A DNA stretch of 35,825 nucleotides, taken from assembly GCA_036479435.1 (NCBI GenBank), contig JAZGFI010000217.1, positions 1 through 35,825 on the forward strand. Reading direction: 5' to 3'. The notes under the pieces are model-generated. The model did not search any database. It was not told the origin of the DNA and worked only from the letters and a program-made list of their open reading frames with translations. The translations under genes were made by a program, and so were the position numbers. Shown here piece after piece: positions 2,734-14,539 of the stretch. The DNA comes from Planctomycetota bacterium. GTDB lineage: Bacteria; Planctomycetota; GCA-002687715; DRQF01. Numbering within the stretch: the stretch's first letter is position 1; every line of letters starts with the position of its first letter.

Positions 2734-3852
2734 ATGACTTACATCCATCAACGGCCAGACTGGCCAACCTTTACTTGGGACAGCGATACCCTCGCCGCGC
2801 CCTTGGCGGCCCTGAGGCACAAGCAAGGGAAACATCTGGGGCGAATGGAGGCCTTGGGTTTCCAACTTCGAACCGAAGCGAGCCTTTCAATGCTGACAGA
2901 AGAGGTCGTTAAGACCTCCGCTATCGAAGGCGAGCACCTTGATCCTCATGAGGTCCGATCGTCCGTCGCTCGCAGACTTGGACTCGACGCGGCCGGTTCG
3001 CCTAAGCCCAGTCGGCAGGTCGAAGGCGTCGTCGCCATGATGCTTGACGCAACCCGAAACTTTGACACCCAGCTCACGACGAAGCGGCTTTTTGGTTGGC
3101 ATGCTGCACTCTTCCCGACCGGGCGAAGCGGCATGCAAGCCATCACGGTCGGCGGCTGGCGAAGCGATCAAGGCGGGCCCATGCAAGTTGTGTCGGGTCC
3201 CATCGGCAAAGAGAAAGTTCACTTCCAAGCCCCTGATGCCGACCGGCTTGAGGAGGAAATGACAGCGTTCCTGAACTGGTTCAACTCGTCGTCAGCCATC
3301 GATCCCATTCTTAGAGCTGGCGTCGCGCACTTGTGGTTCGTCACCATCCACCCCTTCGACGATGGCAATGGTCGCCTTGCCAGAGCCATTGCTGAGACGG
3401 CTCTTTCTCAGGCCGATGGCACGCAGGACCGCTACTACAGTATGTCTTCGGGAATCGAAGCCGAGCGCAAAGACTACTACGCGCTCCTTGAGAACACCCA
3501 AAGCGCCACCCTCGACATCACACCCTGGCTCACATGGTTTTTTGGATGCCTCGATCGCACGATGGACGCCGCCGATGCCTCTTTAAACACCGTGTTCGAA
3601 AAAGCGAGGCTGTGGCAAAAAATCAACTCACACCCTGTCAACGAACGCCAACGCCGTGTCATCAACCGAATGCTTGACAACTTCGAAGGCAAACTTGCGA
3701 CCTCAAAGTACGCCAAGCTGGCAAAGTGCTCTACCGACACGGCCCTGAGGGACATCAACGAACTTCAACAACGCAACATCCTCATCAAAAACGCCGGGGG
3801 TGGCAGAAGCACGAGCTACCGTCTGGCGAATCCCGACGAAATCCAGGAATGA
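2734..3852 (+). CDS. Fic family protein (DUF4172 N-terminus, Fic core, C-terminal winged HTH)
   Basis: YIHQRPDWPTFTWD N-terminus, TSAIEGE, intact Fic motif HPFDDGNGRLAR, C-terminal TSKYAKLAKCSTDTALRDINEL...GGRSTSY. Confidence 0.93.
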   Translation: MTYIHQRPDWPTFTWDSDTLAAPLAALRHKQGKHLGRMEALGFQLRTEASLSMLTEEVVKTSAIEGEHLDPHEVRSSVARRLGLDAAGSPKPSRQVEGVVAMMLDATRNFDTQLTTKRLFGWHAALFPTGRSGMQAITVGGWRSDQGGPMQVVSGPIGKEKVHFQAPDADRLEEEMTAFLNWFNSSSAIDPILRAGVAHLWFVTIHPFDDGNGRLARAIAETALSQADGTQDRYYSMSSGIEAERKDYYALLENTQSATLDITPWLTWFFGCLDRTMDAADASLNTVFEKARLWQKINSHPVNERQRRVINRMLDNFEGKLATSKYAKLAKCSTDTALRDINELQQRNILIKNAGGGRSTSYRLANPDEIQE

Positions 3853-3902
3853 TCGCCGACGGTTTTTGTTCGATTCTCACCGGGAGCGATGAGTCTAAGG
3901 GT

Positions 3903-4925
3903 TCAGTGGTCGAGCTCCGACTCAAGTTGTTCGATGCTTGGAAGTTTCCCTTTCAGGTCATCGGGAAGAGCCTCGGTTAGTTCGTACTCAGAAACCCCGA
4001 TGGGATTGTCGATGCCCTTGAGGGACCACTCGGCAACGAGCCTGTTCTTCCCTCGACAAAGAAGAAGGCCGATGGTGGGGTGGTCTTCGGGCGTACAGAG
4101 CATCTCGTTAATCGCCGTCACGTAGAAATTGAGTTGGCCGGCGTACTCTGGCTTGAAGTCGGTCGCTTTCAGTTCGACGACCACGTAGGCGTGAAGCTTG
4201 ACGTGATAGAAAAGCAAGTCAATGAAGAACTCATCGCCGCCGACTTCAATGCGTTGTTGTCGACCCAGGAAGGCAAATCCAATGCCAAGCTCGACAAGGA
4301 ACTTTTGCAGATGGTTCACGAGCGCTTGCTCGGTTTCGCGCTCTCGGGAATCACCGTCGAGCATAAGGAACCGGAAGCAGTAGGGATCTTTGATGGTTTG
4401 CTGGGCGAGGTCTGACTGGTGGGCAGGGAGGGTCCGCTCGAAATTCGTGATGGCCTGCCCTTCTCGACGGTAGAGGCCGGTTTCGATCTGCATCATCATG
4501 ATGTCACGGCTCCAGCCGTGCTTGATGCAAGCTTGGAGATACCAGCGCCTCTCTGCGGGGTCCTTGACCTTCTCAAGGAGCCGAATGTTGTGGCCCCAGG
4601 GAATTTGTGCAACAAGCTGTTGCACAATTGACTCGTCGGACCAAGCGCGGGCTAACATCCTCATGTAGTTGAGGTTGCGGAAGGATAGCCCTTTCATGCT
4701 CGGGAAACTTCTTCGAAGGTCCTTGCTCAGCTGCTGTAGTACTTTCGCGCCCCAACCTTGCAGTTGCTGCCGCTCCAAGATGTCTCGCCCGATGCTCCAG
4801 TAGAGCAGAACCAGTTCGCGGTTGACCGCGAGCGCAGCCTTCACTTGCGCGCTTCGGATGCGATCTTTGAGCTCGGTCAAAAGATCGCCATGGCCCTCGT
4901 AGTTTTGGAACAGATCTGTGCTCAT
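3903..4925 (-). CDS. yhcG: YhcG/DUF1016 family PD-(D/E)XK nuclease-domain protein
   Basis: VNRELVLLYWSIG, WGAKVLQQLSKDL, IPWGHN, KDPY, FIDLLFYH...VVVELK, GQLNFY, TIGLLLC motifs. Start placed at ATG 4925 (MSTDLF), not the longer ORF start at 5084. Confidence 0.92.
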   Translation of the reverse strand: MSTDLFQNYEGHGDLLTELKDRIRSAQVKAALAVNRELVLLYWSIGRDILERQQLQGWGAKVLQQLSKDLRRSFPSMKGLSFRNLNYMRMLARAWSDESIVQQLVAQIPWGHNIRLLEKVKDPAERRWYLQACIKHGWSRDIMMMQIETGLYRREGQAITNFERTLPAHQSDLAQQTIKDPYCFRFLMLDGDSRERETEQALVNHLQKFLVELGIGFAFLGRQQRIEVGGDEFFIDLLFYHVKLHAYVVVELKATDFKPEYAGQLNFYVTAINEMLCTPEDHPTIGLLLCRGKNRLVAEWSLKGIDNPIGVSEYELTEALPDDLKGKLPSIEQLESELDH

Positions 4926-5116
4926 CGGTTTTCCTGACTTGGGCGCAACCTGCGACTTGTCGGGGCCAAAGCAACGCAAAGCGGCCAACAGGAAGACGCC
5001 TTCGTCCGCGAGCCTCCTCCCACCTAAAGTCTCTATGCCTCCTAACCTTCCCCAGTTTCCAGCCAGGGTGAAGCGGGCCACCACATCCAGGACGACGGAG
5101 TTCTCTAAGGGTCACT

Positions 5117-5274
5117 TTTCGTTTGCCGTTCTTCCGGCCCCGTTCAAGTCGGCGGTTCACTGAACGCCGCACCTTATTTCTTGACTCACCGCCGTGGGGG
5201 GAATTGTGTCAGCCGTAATTTCTCCGCCTGCCTGAATTTCTCTAGCGTCTCCGGAGATGCGTTAGCCTGGAAGA
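5117..5274. repeat. ~160-bp non-coding element (unsplit copy); left half matches 8751-8819, right half matches 12818-12887
   Basis: Hand ungapped alignments: 5117-5185 vs 8751-8819 = 57/69; 5205-5274 vs 12818-12887 = 48/70. The left half contains the stem CGGC-G-GTTC..GAAC-GCCG and ends in TTGAC. Confidence 0.8.
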
Positions 5275-5298
5275 AGGTGTTTGATGCCGCATGAGGGC

Positions 5299-6987
5299 TT
5301 AGTTTTTTGAGTTGGCCGCCCGCATTTTTCGGATTCGCTTTTCGAGATCCTCCGGCAAGACGAGGTCGACGACCTGTCCGGCGTCTCCGTTGACATTGAA
5401 GCTGATCGAACTCAACTGTTGAATATTGGTCGCGGAGCCAGTTACTCGCTGCAGACTCAGTTGGAAGGTGGTGTTTCCTAGCGCCAGCGGCGTGAACGGG
5501 AGCGGGCCCGTGGTTTGGATCAGACCCTTCGGCCCGGGTTTGAGGATGTGTCTGAATCCCCTATCACTGAGAATGATAGCCTCCCCTTTTTGGAGGCGAG
5601 GCCACTGCTCAGGGAACTTGATGAGGACGCGTTCGGCTTTACGGAAGACAACCCGGGTCAACCCCGGTTTGATGGCAACAACCCGCTCGAGGTAGCCCTT
5701 TTTGGAAAACGTCATATCGAAGGAGCTTCGCTTAGATCTCAGCTGGTGTTTGGGCCCTAGATTACGCCCGCTAACTGTTATGACCAGTCTTTTGGAACTC
5801 CCGGCGGATTGGAAGCTAACGCCCTGGATGGGAAGTCCTTTTACATCAACGAATTCAAAGTCGTAGACATTGAGATCGACGACGACCAGAATGTCACCCA
5901 AGTCCGCGGTTGCTCCCCCTTTGATGGTGATGTTTTTCTTTTCCCACAAAAGGTCCAGTTGGCGACCAAAAATCTGGAGTCGGTAGGTGCCGGGGGCAAG
6001 GTCGTTCATCTCGATTCGGCCGTTTTTGCTGACGTTGTTTCCTCCCCGACGGCGGCCAACTTCGGCTTCGGGTCGAAGGGAATAAAACCAAGAGGTCACA
6101 GAGATCCCCTTCGTGGGAAGGAGGCGCACTCGGAAAACCCCAGCCTGTTCTAGAGTCACGACAAGGGTCTTGGCGCTCAGTCGACAGGGGACTTTCTTGG
6201 CGTCCAAGAAGCCTTTTTTGGACGCAGACACAAACAGCTCGTCGCTGGTTTCTTTCAGCAGAATACCCCGCAGCTCGAACTGTCCCTGCTTGTTGGACAA
6301 GCAGTCATCAAACATGCCCACTGGTGTTCGGTAGCGCTCGTGTTTGCCGATGAAATCCTTGCGCCTCAACTTGATGATAGCTGCCGCCAAGGGCTGTCCG
6401 TTTGTTCTTTGAGCTCGTCCGGACACAAGAATGGCGAAGGCTTCCAAGGTTTGGTCACCGAGATCGAGATCGCCAGTTTTCACGCGTTTGGTGATATCGA
6501 CGAAGACACCTTTGGATGCCGACTTTGATGGGCGGCTCAGTTTCCTCATTTCAAAACAAATTCTGGTGGGGGGGCGGATTCGACGGGCCATTGGATAGAG
6601 ATTTTTGGGCACCAGACGAAAGAAGCGGCCCTCTTGGTCGGTCGTTATTGAGCCGCCGCCGCCAGCGTTCGGGTTGCCGAACTTACGGTCGACACTGAAC
6701 CTGCAACTCAACTTTGTGTCTTGGATCGGCCGCCCCTTTTCGTCCACCAGGCGCCCGCTAATGACCAACGCCTTTTCTTCCGCCTGTTCGGCCGGTTTCA
6801 TGGTGGCCAAAGCGGAAGATCGAACCGAGTGCAGGGGCTTGTTGCCGTCCGCGGTCCCCGGTGATTTCAGAGCGTGTAATTTTCGGGGCGAGGACGCCTC
6901 GAAATCGCCGGCAAGGTTTCGACGGAAACTGGCGGCGCCCAGGAGCGGCAGGAGCAATAAGGCCATCACAGCAGTCATGATCTTCAT
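5299..6987 (-). CDS. secreted protein with carboxypeptidase-regulatory-like (beta-sandwich) repeats
   Basis: Signal-like MKIMTAVMALLLLPLLGAASF. Repeated ISGRLVDEKGRPI, VSGRAQRTNGQPL, FVDVKGLPIQGV, plus TTDQEGRF and DLAPGTYRL motifs. The start could alternatively be 7047. Confidence 0.7.
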   Translation of the reverse strand: MKIMTAVMALLLLPLLGAASFRRNLAGDFEASSPRKLHALKSPGTADGNKPLHSVRSSALATMKPAEQAEEKALVISGRLVDEKGRPIQDTKLSCRFSVDRKFGNPNAGGGGSITTDQEGRFFRLVPKNLYPMARRIRPPTRICFEMRKLSRPSKSASKGVFVDITKRVKTGDLDLGDQTLEAFAILVSGRAQRTNGQPLAAAIIKLRRKDFIGKHERYRTPVGMFDDCLSNKQGQFELRGILLKETSDELFVSASKKGFLDAKKVPCRLSAKTLVVTLEQAGVFRVRLLPTKGISVTSWFYSLRPEAEVGRRRGGNNVSKNGRIEMNDLAPGTYRLQIFGRQLDLLWEKKNITIKGGATADLGDILVVVDLNVYDFEFVDVKGLPIQGVSFQSAGSSKRLVITVSGRNLGPKHQLRSKRSSFDMTFSKKGYLERVVAIKPGLTRVVFRKAERVLIKFPEQWPRLQKGEAIILSDRGFRHILKPGPKGLIQTTGPLPFTPLALGNTTFQLSLQRVTGSATNIQQLSSISFNVNGDAGQVVDLVLPEDLEKRIRKMRAANSKN

Positions 6988-7314
6988 GGGCAAGTTCTCA
7001 AAGAGTCGGTTTTGCCACCTCAAGACCGTGGCGAGGCGTGCCAGCATGGATGCTCAAGCTCTAAGGTCTAGATACCACAGCAAGCGGTACGCGCGAAACG
7101 CCGATCAGTCCAGAACGGGCTCTGAGATGGCTTTCATGACAGTTTCTTGCCAACCCTATACCTCAGCTACTGAGACTCGAGCGAGCAAAGCGGATGGCTG
7201 CCGTTCTGGGGAGGCTCTTGGACAATAGCTGGTCTAAGAGGCAACCATGCTCGGGTAGCTTGACTGTACGCCACTGACACAATTAGAGATAGAGAATATG
7301 GATCAAATACGGAA

Positions 7315-7349
7315 TTGGATTCCCTGTTTGCACATGCTATCTTGTTCGC
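7315..7349 (+). promoter_or_regulatory. putative promoter giving a leaderless mRNA for the AAA ATPase
   Basis: TTGGAT (7315-7320), 17 bp, TATCTT (7338-7343) preceded by TGC (extended -10). ATG follows 6 nt later with no SD. Confidence 0.5.
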
Positions 7350-8525
7350 ATGATACCTCGCACCATGGAATCTCACTTACTGAACATCGCAGGGAAATTC
7401 CCCGTCGTAACCCTTACTGGGCCTCGCCAGTCTGGGAAGACGACATTGTGCAGGAAGTTGTTCCCAGATAAGGCCTACGTTTCCTTGGAAGAGCCTGATG
7501 TTCGGGCGAGGGCAATTGACGATCCAAGAGGCTTTTTAGGGGAACTCTCGAAGGGCTGCATCCTCGATGAAGTCCAAAGAACGCCTGATCTTCTATCCTA
7601 TCTCCAAGGCATGGTTGATGAAGATCCAAGCCCCGGCCGATTCATTTTGACCGGATCACAAAATCTCAACTTGCTCGCTTCGATCTCGCAGTCTCTCGCC
7701 GGCCGCACGGCCATTTGCCACCTACTACCCCTTTCGGTCGAAGAGATTCCCGAGGTCGGCGACCTTTGGCAAACCATTTTTTGTGGTGGCTACCCAAGGA
7801 TTCACAGCTCCTCAGTTGGACCCCAAGAGTGGATTTCGTCTTACGTTCAAACTTACATCGAAAGAGATGTGCGAGAGGTCCTCAATGTCGGTGACCTAGC
7901 TTCATTCCAAACTTTCATGGGACTTTGTGCGGGGCGGACGGGGCAAGTCCTTAACCTAACGAGCCTCGGGAGCGACTGCGGTATCAATCAGAAAACAGCG
8001 AAAGCTTGGCTTTCGGTCCTCGAAACCAGCTTCCTTGCGTTTCGCCTACGACCGTTCTTTCACAACCTTGGCAAGCGTTGGGTAAAGTCACCCAAACTAC
8101 ACTTCTTTGATTCTGGCCTTGTGTGTTTTTTGTTGGGTATTCGTGAACCACAACAGCTAACTACTCATCCTTTGCGAGGGGCCATCTTCGAAACCTGGGT
8201 CGTCTCTGAGTGCTACAAAGCTCAGGTAAATCGAGGGATCAACCCGGACCTATTCCATTGGCGAGACGCAAAAGGACATGAAGTCGACCTTGTTGCGCTA
8301 AGTGGCGGCCACGCGACCCTTGTCGAGGTCAAGTCCGGCAAGACAATGGCTACCGACTTCCTCCAACCCTTGGATCATTTCGCACATCTCCTGGACACGA
8401 AGGACGACTTGGTCAACAGCTCATCCAAGTTCTTGGTCTATGGAGGTGATGAAGAGATCCAACACCGAGAGACTCAAGTGCTTCCTTGGTCAAAGCTACC
8501 AGGGCTGTTCTCAAGCCTCGTTTGA
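7350..8525 (+). CDS. AAA_14 ATPase with DUF4143 / C-terminal nuclease-like domain
   Basis: Walker A GPRQSGKT, Walker B ILDEVQ, FILTGS, SLAGR, GGYP, KSPKLHFFDSGL, EVDLV...LVEVKS. Confidence 0.92.
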   Translation: MIPRTMESHLLNIAGKFPVVTLTGPRQSGKTTLCRKLFPDKAYVSLEEPDVRARAIDDPRGFLGELSKGCILDEVQRTPDLLSYLQGMVDEDPSPGRFILTGSQNLNLLASISQSLAGRTAICHLLPLSVEEIPEVGDLWQTIFCGGYPRIHSSSVGPQEWISSYVQTYIERDVREVLNVGDLASFQTFMGLCAGRTGQVLNLTSLGSDCGINQKTAKAWLSVLETSFLAFRLRPFFHNLGKRWVKSPKLHFFDSGLVCFLLGIREPQQLTTHPLRGAIFETWVVSECYKAQVNRGINPDLFHWRDAKGHEVDLVALSGGHATLVEVKSGKTMATDFLQPLDHFAHLLDTKDDLVNSSSKFLVYGGDEEIQHRETQVLPWSKLPGLFSSLV

Positions 8526-8587: not shown

Positions 8588-8710
8588 CTATCGGAGTGCT
8601 TGGAAGATGACGATGTCTTGGGGTTGGTTCTCGCGCAGTTCGGCCAGCTGGTAGCGGGCGGAAAGGAGTGATCTCAGATCGACGTCTTTGCCGGCAGTGA
8701 CGACTTGGGT
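8588..8710 (-). pseudogene. displaced duplicate of the last 40 codons of the 12989-14233 membrane-protein gene
   Basis: 96/123 nt identical to 12989-13111, including a 25-bp perfect match (8640-8664 = 13041-13065). Translates TQVVTAGKDVDLRSLLSARYQLAELRENQPQDIVIFQALR* vs PEVVIVGRNIDLQSLFSARYQLAEPREAQPQDVVILQALR* (27/40), with the stop in register. Confidence 0.85.
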
Positions 8711-8945: not shown

Positions 8946-9284
8946 ATGTTCGAAGCCCAAATTCTCAACAACAACAGCGCTGCCTTCAGTCCGTGGATGC
9001 CACGCGGCGGAGACAACATCACCTTCACCTTTGAGATCATCGACAAGCTTTTGTCTCAGGATTTCCAGGTGCAGCTGTTTGAGAAAAACAGCGAGGAAAC
9101 CGGTGACGGTACGGCGGTAGGATCCGAGCCCCTCGGCAGCCAAAGCATTGGACTTCATGCCGCGACCAAAACGGGGATGAAGGAACTCGTCCGCTACAAG
9201 TACAGCTTCAAAGGAGCGGTACCGGGCGATTGGGTGTTGTTTCGGATCTTGCCTCCGGTTTGGTTCGATGACGTCAAGGCCTAG
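8946..9284 (+). CDS. hypothetical protein, MFEAQ paralog 1 (112 aa)
   Basis: SD GAGAGG before ATG 8946. Shares MFEAQxLN, FSPWMxRxGDN, FxKN, ELVRY and DWVLFRxLxPVW with 9668 and 10027. Confidence 0.88.
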   Translation: MFEAQILNNNSAAFSPWMPRGGDNITFTFEIIDKLLSQDFQVQLFEKNSEETGDGTAVGSEPLGSQSIGLHAATKTGMKELVRYKYSFKGAVPGDWVLFRILPPVWFDDVKA

Positions 9285-9299
9285 GAGGGAGGGCATCTA

Positions 9300-9512
9300 A
9301 TGTCTGAATCTTTTGAGCCTGAAAAAGGCCGAGGAGCGATCTTCAGCGACTATTTCCCCCGAGTCAGCGAAGACGTTTCACACAGGCCCGAGATGGCAGG
9401 CCAACTACCTGGCTCAAGGTTTGCCTTCTTCGATGAAGACCGAAGGATCACGGGGTTCTTTTGTCTTGGCGATGACGGCGACGGTCCACGAGTAAGACCC
9501 GAGGACGACTGA
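9300..9512 (+). CDS. small hypothetical protein, possibly a degenerate MFEAQ relative (70 aa)
   Basis: Strong SD AGGAGG immediately after the paralog-1 stop. GAIFSDYFPRVSED aligns weakly with SAAFSPWMPRGGDN. Confidence 0.5.
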   Translation: MSESFEPEKGRGAIFSDYFPRVSEDVSHRPEMAGQLPGSRFAFFDEDRRITGFFCLGDDGDGPRVRPEDD

Positions 9513-9667
9513 ACAAACACCGAGTACCAAGACCAAGGTGCTGGCGAAGACCGGCGGTCAGATCCGGCCAACATCGGGCGGCTCGGGCTCGAAACGACGG
9601 AGACTATAACTCGATTGTGAATGGCAACCCGGCGTGCGCATCGCGCGCCTAAATAGGAGAGAAGGAA

Positions 9668-10015
9668 ATGTTCGAAGCTCAATTACTCAACTACAACAGC
9701 AAGGTCTTCAGTCCTTGGATGGCGCGCGGCGGTGACAACCTCGTGTTCAGCGCGGAGGTCATCGACAAGAACCTAACGTCAGCTTTCACGATTCAACTCT
9801 TCGAGAAGAATACCGAAACCACCGGGTCCGGGGACCCGGTTGCTGGCGGGCCAACGCTGGATTTTACGACCGCCGTAAGCAAGACATCGAGCCCGGCTGA
9901 GGGCCTTAAGGAACTCGTTCGCTACGAGTTTTCGTTTACAGCCACCGGAGCCTCTGGCGATTGGGTTCTCTTTCGCATGTTGGCGCCAGTCTGGTACAAC
10001 GCGGTTAAGGCTTAA
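9668..10015 (+). CDS. hypothetical protein, MFEAQ paralog 2 (115 aa)
   Basis: SD AGGAG/AAGGA; same conserved blocks as paralogs 1 and 3. Confidence 0.9.
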   Translation: MFEAQLLNYNSKVFSPWMARGGDNLVFSAEVIDKNLTSAFTIQLFEKNTETTGSGDPVAGGPTLDFTTAVSKTSSPAEGLKELVRYEFSFTATGASGDWVLFRMLAPVWYNAVKA

Positions 10016-10026
10016 GGAGGTGGCTG

Positions 10027-10368
10027 ATGTTTGAAGCCCAACTCCTGAACAAAGGTTCCGTGGTCTTCAGCCCATGGATGAACCGCCGCGGCGACAATCT
10101 GATTGTCACGCTTGATCTTGTGGATAAGTCCTCGAAGGGGCAGTTGACCGTCAAAGTGTTTCACAAAAACACCGACGATCCCGGTGATGGCGTCAATGCT
10201 GATGCCACCACCACGATCACCGGGGACTTGGTGGGTCGGCTCTCCGACGAATGGAACGGTCTCGAGGAGATGGTCCGCTATCGCTTCGAAGTGACCAAGC
10301 AAGGGAGCAGCGATTGGGTGCTGTTTCGGATGCTCTCGCCGGTTTGGTTTGATGATGCCAAGGCTTAG
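10027..10368 (+). CDS. hypothetical protein, MFEAQ paralog 3 (113 aa)
   Basis: Perfect SD TAAGGAGGT overlapping the previous stop; same conserved blocks. Confidence 0.9.
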   Translation: MFEAQLLNKGSVVFSPWMNRRGDNLIVTLDLVDKSSKGQLTVKVFHKNTDDPGDGVNADATTTITGDLVGRLSDEWNGLEEMVRYRFEVTKQGSSDWVLFRMLSPVWFDDAKA

Positions 10369-10382
10369 AATAGGAACTTAGC

Positions 10383-11573
10383 ATGTTCGACATTCCAGGA
10401 TACCCATTGACGCACGGCGGCTACGGCGGCCCGAGTGGTGGCGGCGCTTCCAGTGGCTTTGCACCTATACCCGGAACATCGGCGGGCGTCGCATCGGCAA
10501 TGGGCGTGTCGAGCTTCGACGCTGGCGGTGGCGCGTCCTACGAACCTTCGGGTGTTGGAACGACGTCTTCCGGGTCATGTTGTGGCGGAAATTGCGGTGG
10601 CGGTTGTGGCTGCGATTGCTCCAGTGATTCCGGGTGTTCTTGCAATTTCGATGGTGAGACCGATATTGCTGGCATTCCGGGGGTTCTTGGTGGCGGCATG
10701 AGTGGTTCGGGCAGGGGCCACGGTGCATCAGGTGGCGCAACCGCATCTGACCCGCCACCTGGCGGACAAGAAGAGGCGTCTTCTGGAATTATTGGTTCGA
10801 CTCAGGGCACGCCGCGAATAGGTCCAATCTCTACAGGATCACAGAGGAATCCTGACGGGAGCGTCTCATTTGCGCGAGAGTTAACTTGTGGATCAAAGGC
10901 AGAGGAGGATTTTGATTTTGGAACTCCCCTTTGGGTAGACAACGAGTATTTCGCCGCTGGACAGCCCAGAGCTTTTGGACACCATGATCGTAGGGAGCTG
11001 ATGCGAAGAGCTATTAGCCGACGCCTGAAGGTCACTTGTGTGTGTCCAGCGCCTCTTCTGCCATCATCTGACTGTAAACCCGGCTCATTTTCCTGGACGC
11101 CTAGCGACCCCAGCATTCTCAATCCCCTGTATTTCGACAGCGGTTTGACCGGGGCTGCCTCAGGATTCAACATAGTTGTCGGGGCGCTTAGCGTGCTTTC
11201 AGGACTTGGAGCGCCTTCGGATAACGGAACTAGTTTCGGGACCCCAGGAATGATAGGATCCACGGATGTTTGGAGGCTGATTCCGAAGCTGAAAGTCGAG
11301 ATGTCATGCGGTGGGAAATGTGTGATTGGCGGAACTGGCAGTGGAGGTGGTTTTTCTCCTTCCGGTGGTAGTACCGGTGGCTCTGGTGGAGGCATCAGCG
11401 GGGCTATTAATACTATTGTGGAGATCGAAAAAAAGAGGGCGCGCCGTTCTGACGCGTTCATCAAGGATCAAAATCGACGGCTCTCAGGAGATCCGGAGCG
11501 CCCACCGAGGGTGGGAGAGTCGTTTGGCAGCATGGTAAATAATTTGCTTGGATTCAATCTGTTTCCAGATTGA
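10383..11573 (+). CDS. Gly/Ser-rich hypothetical protein with an 8-cysteine cluster
   Basis: 396-aa ORF 14 bp after paralog 3, with AGGA SD. Motif CCGGNCGGGCGCDCSSDSGCSC, further Cys in the C-terminal half, no signal peptide evident. Confidence 0.75.
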   Translation: MFDIPGYPLTHGGYGGPSGGGASSGFAPIPGTSAGVASAMGVSSFDAGGGASYEPSGVGTTSSGSCCGGNCGGGCGCDCSSDSGCSCNFDGETDIAGIPGVLGGGMSGSGRGHGASGGATASDPPPGGQEEASSGIIGSTQGTPRIGPISTGSQRNPDGSVSFARELTCGSKAEEDFDFGTPLWVDNEYFAAGQPRAFGHHDRRELMRRAISRRLKVTCVCPAPLLPSSDCKPGSFSWTPSDPSILNPLYFDSGLTGAASGFNIVVGALSVLSGLGAPSDNGTSFGTPGMIGSTDVWRLIPKLKVEMSCGGKCVIGGTGSGGGFSPSGGSTGGSGGGISGAINTIVEIEKKRARRSDAFIKDQNRRLSGDPERPPRVGESFGSMVNNLLGFNLFPD

Positions 11574-12762
11574 CGAGACGTCATTGGTTCGTTTCAGAGA
11601 GGCCAGATTAATAGGCTCAAAACTGCGCACGACATGGTGCTACTGCGGGTCTTGGTGCAATTTGAATGTAGTTGTCGCGGAGGTTCCAATCTTGATCGCT
11701 GCTACTCTTTTATCAGATTCGAAAGGCAGTGAGAGAGTTCATTTTTCATCGCCTAATCCGCTTTGGTCCAAGAACCGAGGGTGTGTTTCCAGTATTGGCA
11801 TTGCGACAATAAAGGCAGCGGCCAAGCTGTTTGTTTACATCGTCTTGTTTTTCTTGGGAGCATGCGGCGATCAAGAAGTTGACTCCACTATCAAGGCAGA
11901 ATCCAATAGAGGTCAACGCAGCGGTATCGTGGACGCTCGTACTGAGTGTAAATTGGTTGCCGAAGTGCTGGATTCAGGCGAAAAGTGTGCTGCAATTGAT
12001 CCCCAGCGCATCAGTGAAGTAAACGCGATTCTTCGTGAGTGTATTGGGGCTGAAGACGGGTACGCTGAGTTGCGTCTACTTAAGAATGGCACGATTCGAC
12101 TGGTAGCTTCAGATTCGGCGCTCTTGACGGAAGCTCTTGCGATCTTGACATCGGCAGGATCAATTGTAATTCGAGTAGTAGAACGCAATTGGGTGAATAA
12201 CCGGATTAGTAGCGACGATTTGGAACGCTACAAAGTTGGGATTCCTCGATCTCAGGGATCTATGTTTCCTGATTTACCAACTCCACTTACGATTGAGGAA
12301 TCTCTCAGATTCCGAACAAAATGGGGGCAGATATTGGCTCAAGACCCGAACAGTCGTGACATGTCGGAGATCGAACCACTTAATTGGTTTCGACTCGATG
12401 CACCGCTTGATTCGCTCAATACAGATTCCGGAGCGGATATCCTCGAGTTGAGGGGAATCACCTCTGCTCGGGTTATTCCTGATCGCCATGTTACCGTTTC
12501 GGAGTATCCAATGTCCGCGTTGCTGTTGACGATGAACAAGCGTTTGGCAAAAGAACATCGATCATTCTTCCTGAAGCATTTCAACCGAAGTGTTGTAACG
12601 CTATTTCGAGGGTTCATCGTAATGCAGTTTTTCGTTCTTAGAGTTCCTGAGATTGGAAATGAGGGCATCAATATTAGCGTCCCCAAAGATGGTGTTCGTG
12701 AGGTGCAGTTCTTTGGGGCTTTACGCATCCAGGCTATGGGAATCCGATTTACAGTTGAGTAG
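11548..12762 (+). CDS. putative lipoprotein with a SecD/SecF periplasmic P1-like domain (true start uncertain, probably downstream of 11548)
   Basis: Lipobox LFVYIVLFFLGAC near 11830-11866. EVNAILRECIG..GYAE..KNGTIRLV..EALAILTSAGSIVIRVV and ITSARV..ALLLTMNKRLAK..NRSVVTLFRG..PEIGNEGINIS resemble the SecD P1 base and head by eye. No SecD transmembrane segments. Confidence 0.55.
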   Translation: MDSICFQIDETSLVRFREARLIGSKLRTTWCYCGSWCNLNVVVAEVPILIAATLLSDSKGSERVHFSSPNPLWSKNRGCVSSIGIATIKAAAKLFVYIVLFFLGACGDQEVDSTIKAESNRGQRSGIVDARTECKLVAEVLDSGEKCAAIDPQRISEVNAILRECIGAEDGYAELRLLKNGTIRLVASDSALLTEALAILTSAGSIVIRVVERNWVNNRISSDDLERYKVGIPRSQGSMFPDLPTPLTIEESLRFRTKWGQILAQDPNSRDMSEIEPLNWFRLDAPLDSLNTDSGADILELRGITSARVIPDRHVTVSEYPMSALLLTMNKRLAKEHRSFFLKHFNRSVVTLFRGFIVMQFFVLRVPEIGNEGINISVPKDGVREVQFFGALRIQAMGIRFTVE

Positions 12763-12817
12763 TAAGTGGTGTGCGTCCTGTGGTTCCCGAAAACTCAAAA
12801 CGGGTTCCCAGGGATAC

Positions 12818-12988: not shown

Positions 12989-14233
12989 TTAGCGAAGCGC
13001 TTGGAGGATGACGACGTCTTGGGGTTGTGCCTCGCGTGGCTCGGCCAGCTGGTAGCGGGCGGAAAAGAGTGACTGAAGGTCGATGTTTCTGCCGACGATG
13101 ACGACCTCGGGGATGTCGAAGTAGTCGCTGCGCTCTGCGAGTTCCTTGGCTTCGTCCATGTCGGTAACGAGGCGAGTTTGATGGCCGGGATGATGGCCTC
13201 GACCTTCGTAGTAGCGATAGAGGTGGCGGTCGGAGCCGGCCAAGAGGACCCAGGCGCGTTGGTCGACGCCGGTTGCTAACCAATCCAAACTTGTGCGCGG
13301 GTCGAATGGCTCCTGGTCATCAGTGGTGGATTGCCAACTGCCCGCTAAGGCTAGGGCCAAGAGCAAAGCCAAGGCAATGAAGATCCGTCGGCGGACCTTC
13401 GGGGCTGACGCTGGCCCGAAAGACTCGGCTACGAGGAGTGAAAGTGGCGGCAGCAGGGCGCTGACCCAAAAGTCGGGTGGGGATTGAAGGTGGATGCCGG
13501 ACTTCACGCTGAGCCAAAAACTCGCGAGGGGGATGGCGAAGATGAGGGCGTTGCCGAGGGCGCGTTTGCCGCCAAGGGCGAGCAGCCCGAAAGCTGCGCC
13601 GGAGAAGATCAGCATCTGTGCGGTGCCGGACATCGTGGCGGGCCACAAGCCGTGACCGGGGGCGAGGCGGGATAGCGCAGTGCTGACTTCTTGGTTGTTG
13701 GGATCCCCGCCGGTGGCGAGGAAATAGGGAGTGAGGGCTACTCCCAGACCCACGAGCCCGGCGACCCCGCGCCGACCCAAGACGGGAAGGCTCCAGGTCA
13801 AAAAGGCTGTGCTCAGACTGGCGGCGAAGAAGAAGGGGGCAGATAAGCCGATGCCGGTGCCGTCGAGGAACGCGACGGGCCAGGCGACGGCGGCGATCAT
13901 CGCGGCCGCGGCCCCGCGCTCGCCAAGTTGACGGTAGGCCGCCAAGCCACAGCAACCGGCGCCAGCCCATAGGCAAAGCAGCGAGAGTGAGCGCGAGGCT
14001 TTTTCTAAGGTTCCCGCCCATTGTGACCAAAAGGACTGGAGGCGGGCCGGGATGCTTGGGTTTTCATGCATCTCGAGGAGAAACTGGGCTTCTTCAGGGG
14101 TGAGTTGGCGACGCCACAGGATGAGGCCAAGCAAGATCCCTAAGGCCACCCAAAGCGCGAACGCTCGCCAGGGAGTGTGGCTTGCCGGTGCCATGAGAGG
14201 TTCGGCGGCAGACTCGGCCGTATTCTTCGACAT
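12989..14233 (-). CDS. polytopic membrane protein, probable GT-C (ArnT/PMT-like) glycosyltransferase
   Basis: About 10 hydrophobic segments followed by a soluble C-terminal domain. RSLSLLCLWAG..AYRQLGERGAAAAM pattern is ArnT-like, and the gene is divergent from the GT operon. Start placed at ATG 14233 (MSKNT) with AAGGGAG upstream. Confidence 0.55.
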   Translation of the reverse strand: MSKNTAESAAEPLMAPASHTPWRAFALWVALGILLGLILWRRQLTPEEAQFLLEMHENPSIPARLQSFWSQWAGTLEKASRSLSLLCLWAGAGCCGLAAYRQLGERGAAAAMIAAVAWPVAFLDGTGIGLSAPFFFAASLSTAFLTWSLPVLGRRGVAGLVGLGVALTPYFLATGGDPNNQEVSTALSRLAPGHGLWPATMSGTAQMLIFSGAAFGLLALGGKRALGNALIFAIPLASFWLSVKSGIHLQSPPDFWVSALLPPLSLLVAESFGPASAPKVRRRIFIALALLLALALAGSWQSTTDDQEPFDPRTSLDWLATGVDQRAWVLLAGSDRHLYRYYEGRGHHPGHQTRLVTDMDEAKELAERSDYFDIPEVVIVGRNIDLQSLFSARYQLAEPREAQPQDVVILQALR

Positions 14234-14539
14234 GAACTCTGAGCATCTCCCTTGGAAAGCGCCCCTGGCGCGGTTTGGCGCGGCTCGGGCTAGGGCGTAG
14301 ACTGCGAACGCTGGTCTTTTTGACCGGTGGCCACGCCTTGGGTGGATTCTTAACGACGCGGGGGGCGGTCGTCCAGCGGTCCTGGGCTTGGGTGTTGCCG
14401 AGCTCTTGGCCCCTAGTGTACGGGACGCGGACTCCCGCAAGTTCTTGCCCAAGAGCAGTCAAGAGGCCTCGAATGTCGAAGATCTAGGCTGGGTCGCGGC
14501 CAATCCTGTCCTGTCACCCACGGTGGAGTCGGTGTTTTC

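Follow-up and report, generated by a model that had tools for sequence, protein, structure and literature searches.

A conserved polymorphic toxin-like cassette with small jelly-roll partners in Planctomycetota

Contig JAZGFI010000217.1 of a Planctomycetota bacterium (GenBank assembly GCA_036479435.1; 35,825 nt, the whole of which we call the window) carries, between positions 8946 and 12762, three genes for small jelly-roll proteins, a gene for a Gly/Cys-rich protein and a gene for a putative membrane-anchored protein or lipoprotein. Together with their relatives, these genes make up a real and conserved polymorphic toxin-like cassette that has its own structural partner, the jelly rolls, and that is apparently undescribed; no account of it was found in the literature searched, which consisted mostly of main texts, supplements aside, from papers outside subscription. 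Across loci the cassette has a fixed layout, polymorphic C-terminal tips that are partly shared with RHS toxins, no signal peptides and no dependence on the type VI secretion system (T6SS). We consider the unit to be probably a toxin–immunity cassette, and lean, with less assurance, towards the fuller proposal that its jelly rolls oligomerize, bind the leader of the toxin, and carry and aim it. Polymorphic toxin systems are classed by their mode of export and delivery, and every route newly found has led to new biology; this cassette is a source of dozens of candidate toxin domains, Cys-rich and unnamed, with candidate immunity partners, in parts small enough for laboratory tests.

Layout and conservation

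The cassette in the window consists of the following features.

8946–9284, + strand: jelly-roll protein 1 (P0001), 112 aa; in the tree the sister of copy 2 (SH-aLRT 87, unstarred)
9300–9512, + strand: 70-aa acidic open reading frame (ORF) between copies 1 and 2, with a Shine–Dalgarno (SD)-like site
9668–10015, + strand: jelly-roll protein 2 (P0002), 115 aa; the copy used for the structure model
10027–10368, + strand: jelly-roll protein 3 (P0003), 113 aa
10383–10860, + strand: leader and linker of P0004; IPG motifs at residues 4, 29 and 98, eight Cys in residues 66–87, Gly-rich linker
10861–11573, + strand: variable C-terminal tip of P0004, a putative toxin domain; six Cys and a Gly-rich hydrophobic stretch
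11548–12762, + strand: putative immunity protein P0005, membrane-anchored or lipoprotein, overlapping the end of P0004; LGAC at residues 103–106

The three jelly-roll genes, which a sequence-only reading of this stretch had singled out as paralogs sharing conserved blocks from an initial MFEAQ onwards, are indeed related, with pairwise identities of 53, 43 and 49% (E 1e-28 to 1e-35) and 41 of 115 alignment columns invariant, every quoted block included. Also borne out were a purine-rich SD-like stretch upstream of each gene, the complete absence of Cys from the three proteins and their lack of signal peptides. The genes are not tandem in the strict sense, since copies 1 and 2 lie 383 nt apart, with the 70-aa ORF between them; this ORF, possibly a remnant, has no homolog in the source genome or the fetched loci. 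The middles of the proteins, said to be unrelated, in fact align with two or three gap positions, coincide with strands 63–66 and 72–78 of the model and are about as variable across 120 homologs (0.34 at residues 61–70) as residues 31–40 (0.39) and 91–100 (0.44). The source genome (G000) holds no copies of the MFEAQ subfamily beyond these three, and P0003 is closer to copies in other loci (58–60%) than to its own neighbours. The whole stretch recurs inside one contig of a second study with 0 base differences, a match for which the DNA source may be common.

Directly downstream, the predicted 396-aa Gly-rich, Cys-cluster protein was confirmed as P0004 (ORF 10383–11573), with 20% Gly, 14 Cys, eight of them in the cluster, and no signal peptide. 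P0005, a single-copy gene in the source genome with no family in Pfam or NCBIfam scans, had been called a lipoprotein resembling the P1 domain of SecD. It does contain a hydrophobic stretch with the LGAC motif, but its first 115 codons include no in-frame ATG or GTG, so that both its start and its lipoprotein status are uncertain. The SecD likeness found no support: at the level of sequence, profiles of the SecDF P1 head and the SecD first domain (PF22599, PF21760) were silent at E ≤ 10, and alignment to the genome's own SecD scored negative. A loose lipobox pattern was dropped as non-discriminating, being present in 15 of 45 next genes and in 5 of 62 toxins, P0004 among them. The G+C content at third codon positions falls from 0.68–0.71 in the jelly-roll genes to 0.48 in the P0004 tip and 0.47 in P0005, a drop that fits a recently exchanged module.

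The same arrangement recurs among the relatives, all labelled Planctomycetota, in a context sample of six window or fetched stretches and 92 loci (two duplicates dropped). The order is fixed: one to four jelly-roll genes are followed by a leaderless protein of 250–570 aa, whose N-terminus is rich in Cys and Gly and whose C-terminal domain is hypervariable, and then by a variable membrane-protein or lipoprotein gene. A same-strand ORF of at least 240 aa begins within 500 nt downstream in 48 of the 54 jelly-roll clusters with at least 1.6 kb of downstream sequence, and 40 of these 48 ORFs have an N-terminal Cys cluster; the six misses seem to include frameshifted loci. The homologs are thus no scattered singletons, which sustains the earlier suggestion of a conserved, undescribed system, and this pairing makes it plausible that the paralogs serve the Gly/Cys-rich protein. 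What the sequence-only reading missed is that this protein belongs to a polymorphic toxin-like pair, of which it is the variable partner.

We assembled 76 variable proteins (62 long ORFs, less three duplicates, a wrong-frame pick, a radical S-adenosylmethionine (SAM) protein and an insertion sequence-like ORF, plus 20 mostly from a second jelly-roll subfamily), which fall into 62 clusters by their C-terminal tips. A Cys cluster is present in 62 of them, compared with 7.6% of 1894 ORFs of the source genome, and an [IVT]PG motif in 25, against a background of 7.4%. The cassette, a mobile unit of 3–5 kb, occurs with at least three jelly-roll families, its hosts being mostly uncultured Planctomycetota; two of these families were found in 27 of 401 sampled genomes, with 16 of 29 within one taxonomic family.

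Copy number varies, the 65 fully flanked clusters having one (23), two (30), three (11) or four (1) jelly-roll genes, counts from which divergent copies may be missing. In the tree, a copy has its nearest relative within its own locus in 25 of 147 cases, and no fixed trio of types recurs. Single copies in 23 clusters and the lack of a fixed trio make an obligate hetero-oligomer of three distinct subunits appear unlikely; arrays of four to seven differing genes in a distant family leave room for mixed oligomers.

Tips, immunity candidates and the toxin reading

Among the tips, Pfam scored DUF3750, described as a Ser-type papain-like family (PMC10318531), in 7 of 58 proteins (five above cut-off) and DUF6973 in one. 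Four tips carry HExxH, which together with H..NSN makes up the conserved catalytic-type motifs; at least 13 tips, under both leader types, share an unnamed CCC..WWE..D-P domain, and several end in hydrophobic helices or Pro-rich tails. Of the three tip families tested, two have members on RHS proteins, the papain-like and the Ntox44-related. A papain-like tip (37% identity, E 1e-25) ends a 1449-aa RHS protein from a genome with no jelly-roll match, and three of the five non-seed matches to a five-member GNI..G tip family are RHS-type ORFs, two of which exceed the Pfam Ntox44 cut-off, one of the two also scoring RHS repeats. Ntox44 is a predicted RNase. A word-limited search for longer RHS fusions returned only five proteins of 336–405 aa. 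The source genome's single RHS protein (C9:8634 onward, a 2500-aa frame) ends in an unrelated basic tip.

The gene that follows encodes a hydrophobic segment in 29 of 45 cases, including HEAT, leucine-rich repeat, carboxypeptidase-regulatory and two S46 peptidase proteins, and none of these genes belongs to a named Imm family. Several small membrane genes may follow a single toxin, and extra or orphan tandem toxin–immunity-type pairs occur in L018, L019, L029, L035 and L136; co-variation of toxin and next gene was seen in few pairs. A possible orphan pair lies at L218:7174–8915 (G277:C21), where a CCC..WWE-tipped leaderless protein and a lipoprotein have no detected jelly roll upstream. At L044:1806–4825 and L074:8396–11467, C-termini that look alike by eye, short and helical, precede an S46 peptidase in the immunity position.

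Judged by its genes, the cassette resembles polymorphic toxin systems, as PMC3482391 (2012) and Burroughs et al. 2025 (PMC12419801) define them, in having a common N-terminal part, an exchangeable C-terminal tip, a variable immunity-type gene next to it, additional toxin–immunity pairs and tips also found on RHS proteins, and in these genomic terms it fits their description. It differs in lacking every trafficking mark listed there (signal peptide, RHS, TpsA, WXG/LXG, PVC metallopeptidase and VgrG) and in having separate jelly-roll genes and a short Cys-rich leader. The word 'jelly' is absent from the accessible text of PMC3482391.

Several findings weigh against a toxin–immunity assignment. 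The P0004 tip has no homolog among 4324 candidates, in the Atlas or among the other tips, and its AlphaFold2 model from a single sequence is unusable (predicted local distance difference test (pLDDT) 41.5), so that its toxin role rests on position. No Pfam family was found in the tips of 49 of 58 proteins; the Ntox44-like tips of the cassette have no direct Pfam Ntox44 match (best E 2.7), the link being one profile step, and none of the RHS proteins in 301 genomes was seen to carry the CCC..WWE family. As to the next genes, those of papain-like tips are mutually unrelated, 16 of 45 lack a hydrophobic segment (some being wrong-frame picks), and in two loci the gene encodes an S46 peptidase. In one locus (L066:330–4974) the usual toxin is replaced, two MFEAQ genes being followed by a radical SAM gene, a short Cys/Pro-rich ORF and a lipoprotein; the idea of a precursor of ribosomally synthesized and post-translationally modified peptides was dropped, with one radical SAM neighbour in 58 scanned.

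The variable proteins could alternatively be polymorphic surface recognition or adhesion proteins with membrane partners, the jelly rolls serving as lectin-like accessory subunits. The lack of an enzyme family in most tips speaks for this, as do the tips ending in hydrophobic helices or Pro-rich tails, the occurrence of DUF3750 in stand-alone exported proteins, and carbohydrate-binding modules at ranks two and three of the fold search. Since tips are common to RHS proteins, with one family linked to Ntox44, catalytic-type motifs are conserved and several membrane genes can trail one toxin, we think this account improbable.

Jelly rolls, leader and delivery

The model of P0002 is a single jelly roll (pLDDT 90). 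No named family had been recognized for the paralogs, and none emerged here: Pfam at E ≤ 0.1 (one sub-cut-off chance row aside) and NCBIfam gave no family, PHROGs matched none of the 120 family members, the MFEAQ profile found no relative in IMG/VR, and PDB sequence searches with jelly-roll, Ntox44-like and P0005 queries found no match. Foldseek comparison, proposed with the sequence-only reading, gave no PDB match for the jelly rolls at E ≤ 1e-3 and four phage proteins in BFVD at the same threshold. In the Atlas, the clusters closest to the jelly rolls are mostly viral (feature score 0.93, structure template-modelling score 0.82), with the Bbp16 and XepA families at low share. PirA is the binding subunit of the PirAB binary toxin. 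Identity to PirA, XepA/YomS and the Bbp16 cement protein is 4–11%; the cassette has no PirB-like partner, its own being hypervariable, and unlike XepA/YomS and Bbp16 the MFEAQ loci have no prophage context. The pentamers of XepA and YomS (PMC6834076) exemplify what such a fold can assemble into.

This resemblance bears on a further possibility, that the jelly rolls derive by domestication from virion proteins (cement or penton) and build a small capsid-like cage around the toxin, or that the cassette is cargo of a virus-like element. Beyond the viral Atlas clusters and the four phage proteins, two loci favour it. The CCC..WWE tip search led to distant jelly-roll-like genes with a GSYDG motif, weakly related by profile (HHalign probability 50%, E 2e-4, 95 columns), which form arrays of four (source-genome contig C245), five (G004) and seven (G006). 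Downstream of each array come a leaderless variable protein and then one that is exported or membrane-bound; the first array adjoins a ParB-methylase and a terminase small subunit.

C245:4321–6885: source-genome GSYDG array (L229); four genes, a leaderless 324-aa Cys/Pro-rich protein and a zinc-peptidase-like exported protein

A protein of this third family matched no phage record. The second locus is L220:3504–7764 (G238:C249), where ORFs of 163 and 332 aa directly precede a leaderless protein whose tip is Ntox44-like (E 0.0014), along with two membrane genes; by eye the two ORFs look like virion-type single and double jelly rolls, a capsid reading that no database confirmed. We regard the virion explanation as highly improbable.

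The leader of the window's subfamily is a compositional motif, unlike that of the second subfamily, an alignable domain with CxxC and then two helices bearing AL.W and FW. A leader profile gave 18 strong matches in 40 genomes, 16 of them seeds and two new, both tied to jelly-roll loci, and three further matches at E 0.002–0.01. A similar Cys-rich extension is found on 9 of 66 last-position jelly rolls and on 0 of 84 others, suggesting that leader and extension may be a common tag for assembly or export. For three copies of the only jelly roll of L123 with the leader of its putative toxin, complex prediction gave 0.25, 0.75 and 0.00 (mark 0.32) in a set run without folded controls. P0128, a 248-aa protein in which two jelly-roll domains are naturally fused, is useful for modelling subunit packing.

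A docking N-terminus has a precedent in Bacillus, where, according to PMC11362473, the protein at the L-ENA tip docks through an N-terminus resembling the subunit connector. On this model the jelly rolls would stack by beta-sheet augmentation into an Ena-like fibre or ring stack, onto whose tip the Cys-rich leader plugs the variable protein, a toxin or adhesin, much as L-BclA sits at the tip of L-ENA. Ena1A/B/C and Ena3A with L-BclA, as presented there, likewise have stand-alone jelly rolls of ~110 aa, tandem paralogs and a following gene whose product carries Cys in its N-terminus. Cys is absent, however, from the window's three copies and from 88 of 120 homologs, which makes Ena-type disulfide links impossible for them; there is no DUF3992 match (E ≤ 0.1), identity is 10%, the host is non-sporulating, no anchor or export gene is linked, and the cassette has a variable enzyme-like tip and an immunity-type gene where Ena has a collagen ruffle. 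A fibre therefore seems unlikely.

Alternatively, the jelly rolls could be cytoplasmic chaperones or adaptors, not themselves released, that hold a disordered leader and pass the toxin to a secretion system whose genes lie elsewhere. Neither partner has a signal peptide (0 of 62 variable proteins have even an N-terminal hydrophobic segment), a single copy suffices in many clusters, and the source genome has a T6SS sheath gene. T6SS delivery was nonetheless rejected: in genomes at least 85% complete, VipB occurs in 3 of 27 jelly-roll-positive and 83 of 374 other genomes (Fisher P 0.23), and in 0 of 19 genomes of the taxonomic family richest in the cassette. The source genome has no phage-type sheath, and a simple adaptor would hardly account for arrays of up to seven paralogs, leaving this role rather unlikely.

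We favour, by a modest degree, a toxin–immunity cassette whose jelly rolls act as carrier. The swappable tip would be the toxin, and the next gene would protect at the membrane or periplasm; the jelly rolls would assemble into a small oligomer, uniform or mixed, which docks on the Cys/IPG leader and acts as carrier and target-binding part, like a B subunit or the spokes of an umbrella particle, with different paralogs perhaps widening the target range. Given the absence of a signal peptide or linked transporter, the complex would most likely leave by lysis, in vesicles or through an unlinked exporter. Two points count against the carrier role: the fold matches are tied within ~1 Z at 4–14% identity, a jelly roll in itself revealing no function, and no transporter or other gene recurs beside the cassette in the loci examined, which revealed no export route. 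Should the jelly rolls be a modular carrier that reads a short tag, they would be a minimal protein-delivery device of a new kind and one more instance of a virion-type fold put to use in bacterial conflict. More speculatively, and with clearly lower likelihood, the cassette may encode a new toxin particle, in which virus-derived jelly rolls from arrays of one to seven genes self-assemble, capture Cys-tagged proteins and deliver them to rivals without known secretion; its assembly might be a mixed ring, fibre or cage, and its cargo toxins together with the tagged terminal jelly roll.

In its working, if it has one, the cassette would resemble a binary toxin, none of whose parts it has, or the Streptomyces umbrella particles (UmbA/B/C), which PMC11062931 describes as a polymorphic toxin with several separately encoded, diversified binding subunits, as proposed here for the jelly rolls. 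Pfam scans of the cassette show no ALF repeats or trypsin-lectin proteins, its putative toxin is a leaderless protein of 250–570 aa, its partners are single 110-aa jelly rolls and its hosts belong to another phylum, so the likeness would be one of functional analogy only.

Insertion site and surroundings

The window carries the unit as a discrete insert of 4.3 kb between two 116-bp direct repeats.

8589–8704, − strand: left copy of the repeat, repeating the last ~38 codons of the gene at 12989–14452; left edge of the insert
12990–13105, − strand: right copy, the 3' end of the intact membrane-protein gene at 12989–14452 (− strand)

The copies are 80% identical (E 2e-23) and translate to the same C-terminus, with no third copy in the source genome. 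Flanking copies of the 3' end of a target gene are the pattern of an insert that duplicates the end of its target. A tRNA was present in 14 of 38 scanned loci, and transposases and Fic proteins were recognized by eye as repeated neighbours. An upstream extracytoplasmic function (ECF) sigma factor, present in 4 of 54 clusters that are for the most part seeds, was rejected as a core part; divergent ECF-like sigma genes lie directly upstream at L034:42–638, L123:9551–10177, L132:7406–8518 and L037:8578–9111. Promoter and terminator scans stayed at chance level, and no RNA dataset was listed for the cassette, one run with a small word share covering 6 of 30 bins.

Just past the cassette, a ~33-bp sequence at 12777–12810 is common to many other contigs and is probably a dispersed short repeat. 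To the left (2734–8525) lie Fic/DUF4172, YhcG (DUF1016-PDDEXK) and AAA_14/DUF4143 genes, the Fic gene having relatives beside cassettes in L018 and L089. To the right (14540–35164) extends a large polysaccharide-type cluster with many GT2 and GT4 glycosyltransferases, two PIG-L deacetylases, a B12-binding radical SAM-like gene and a 1194-aa MscS channel.

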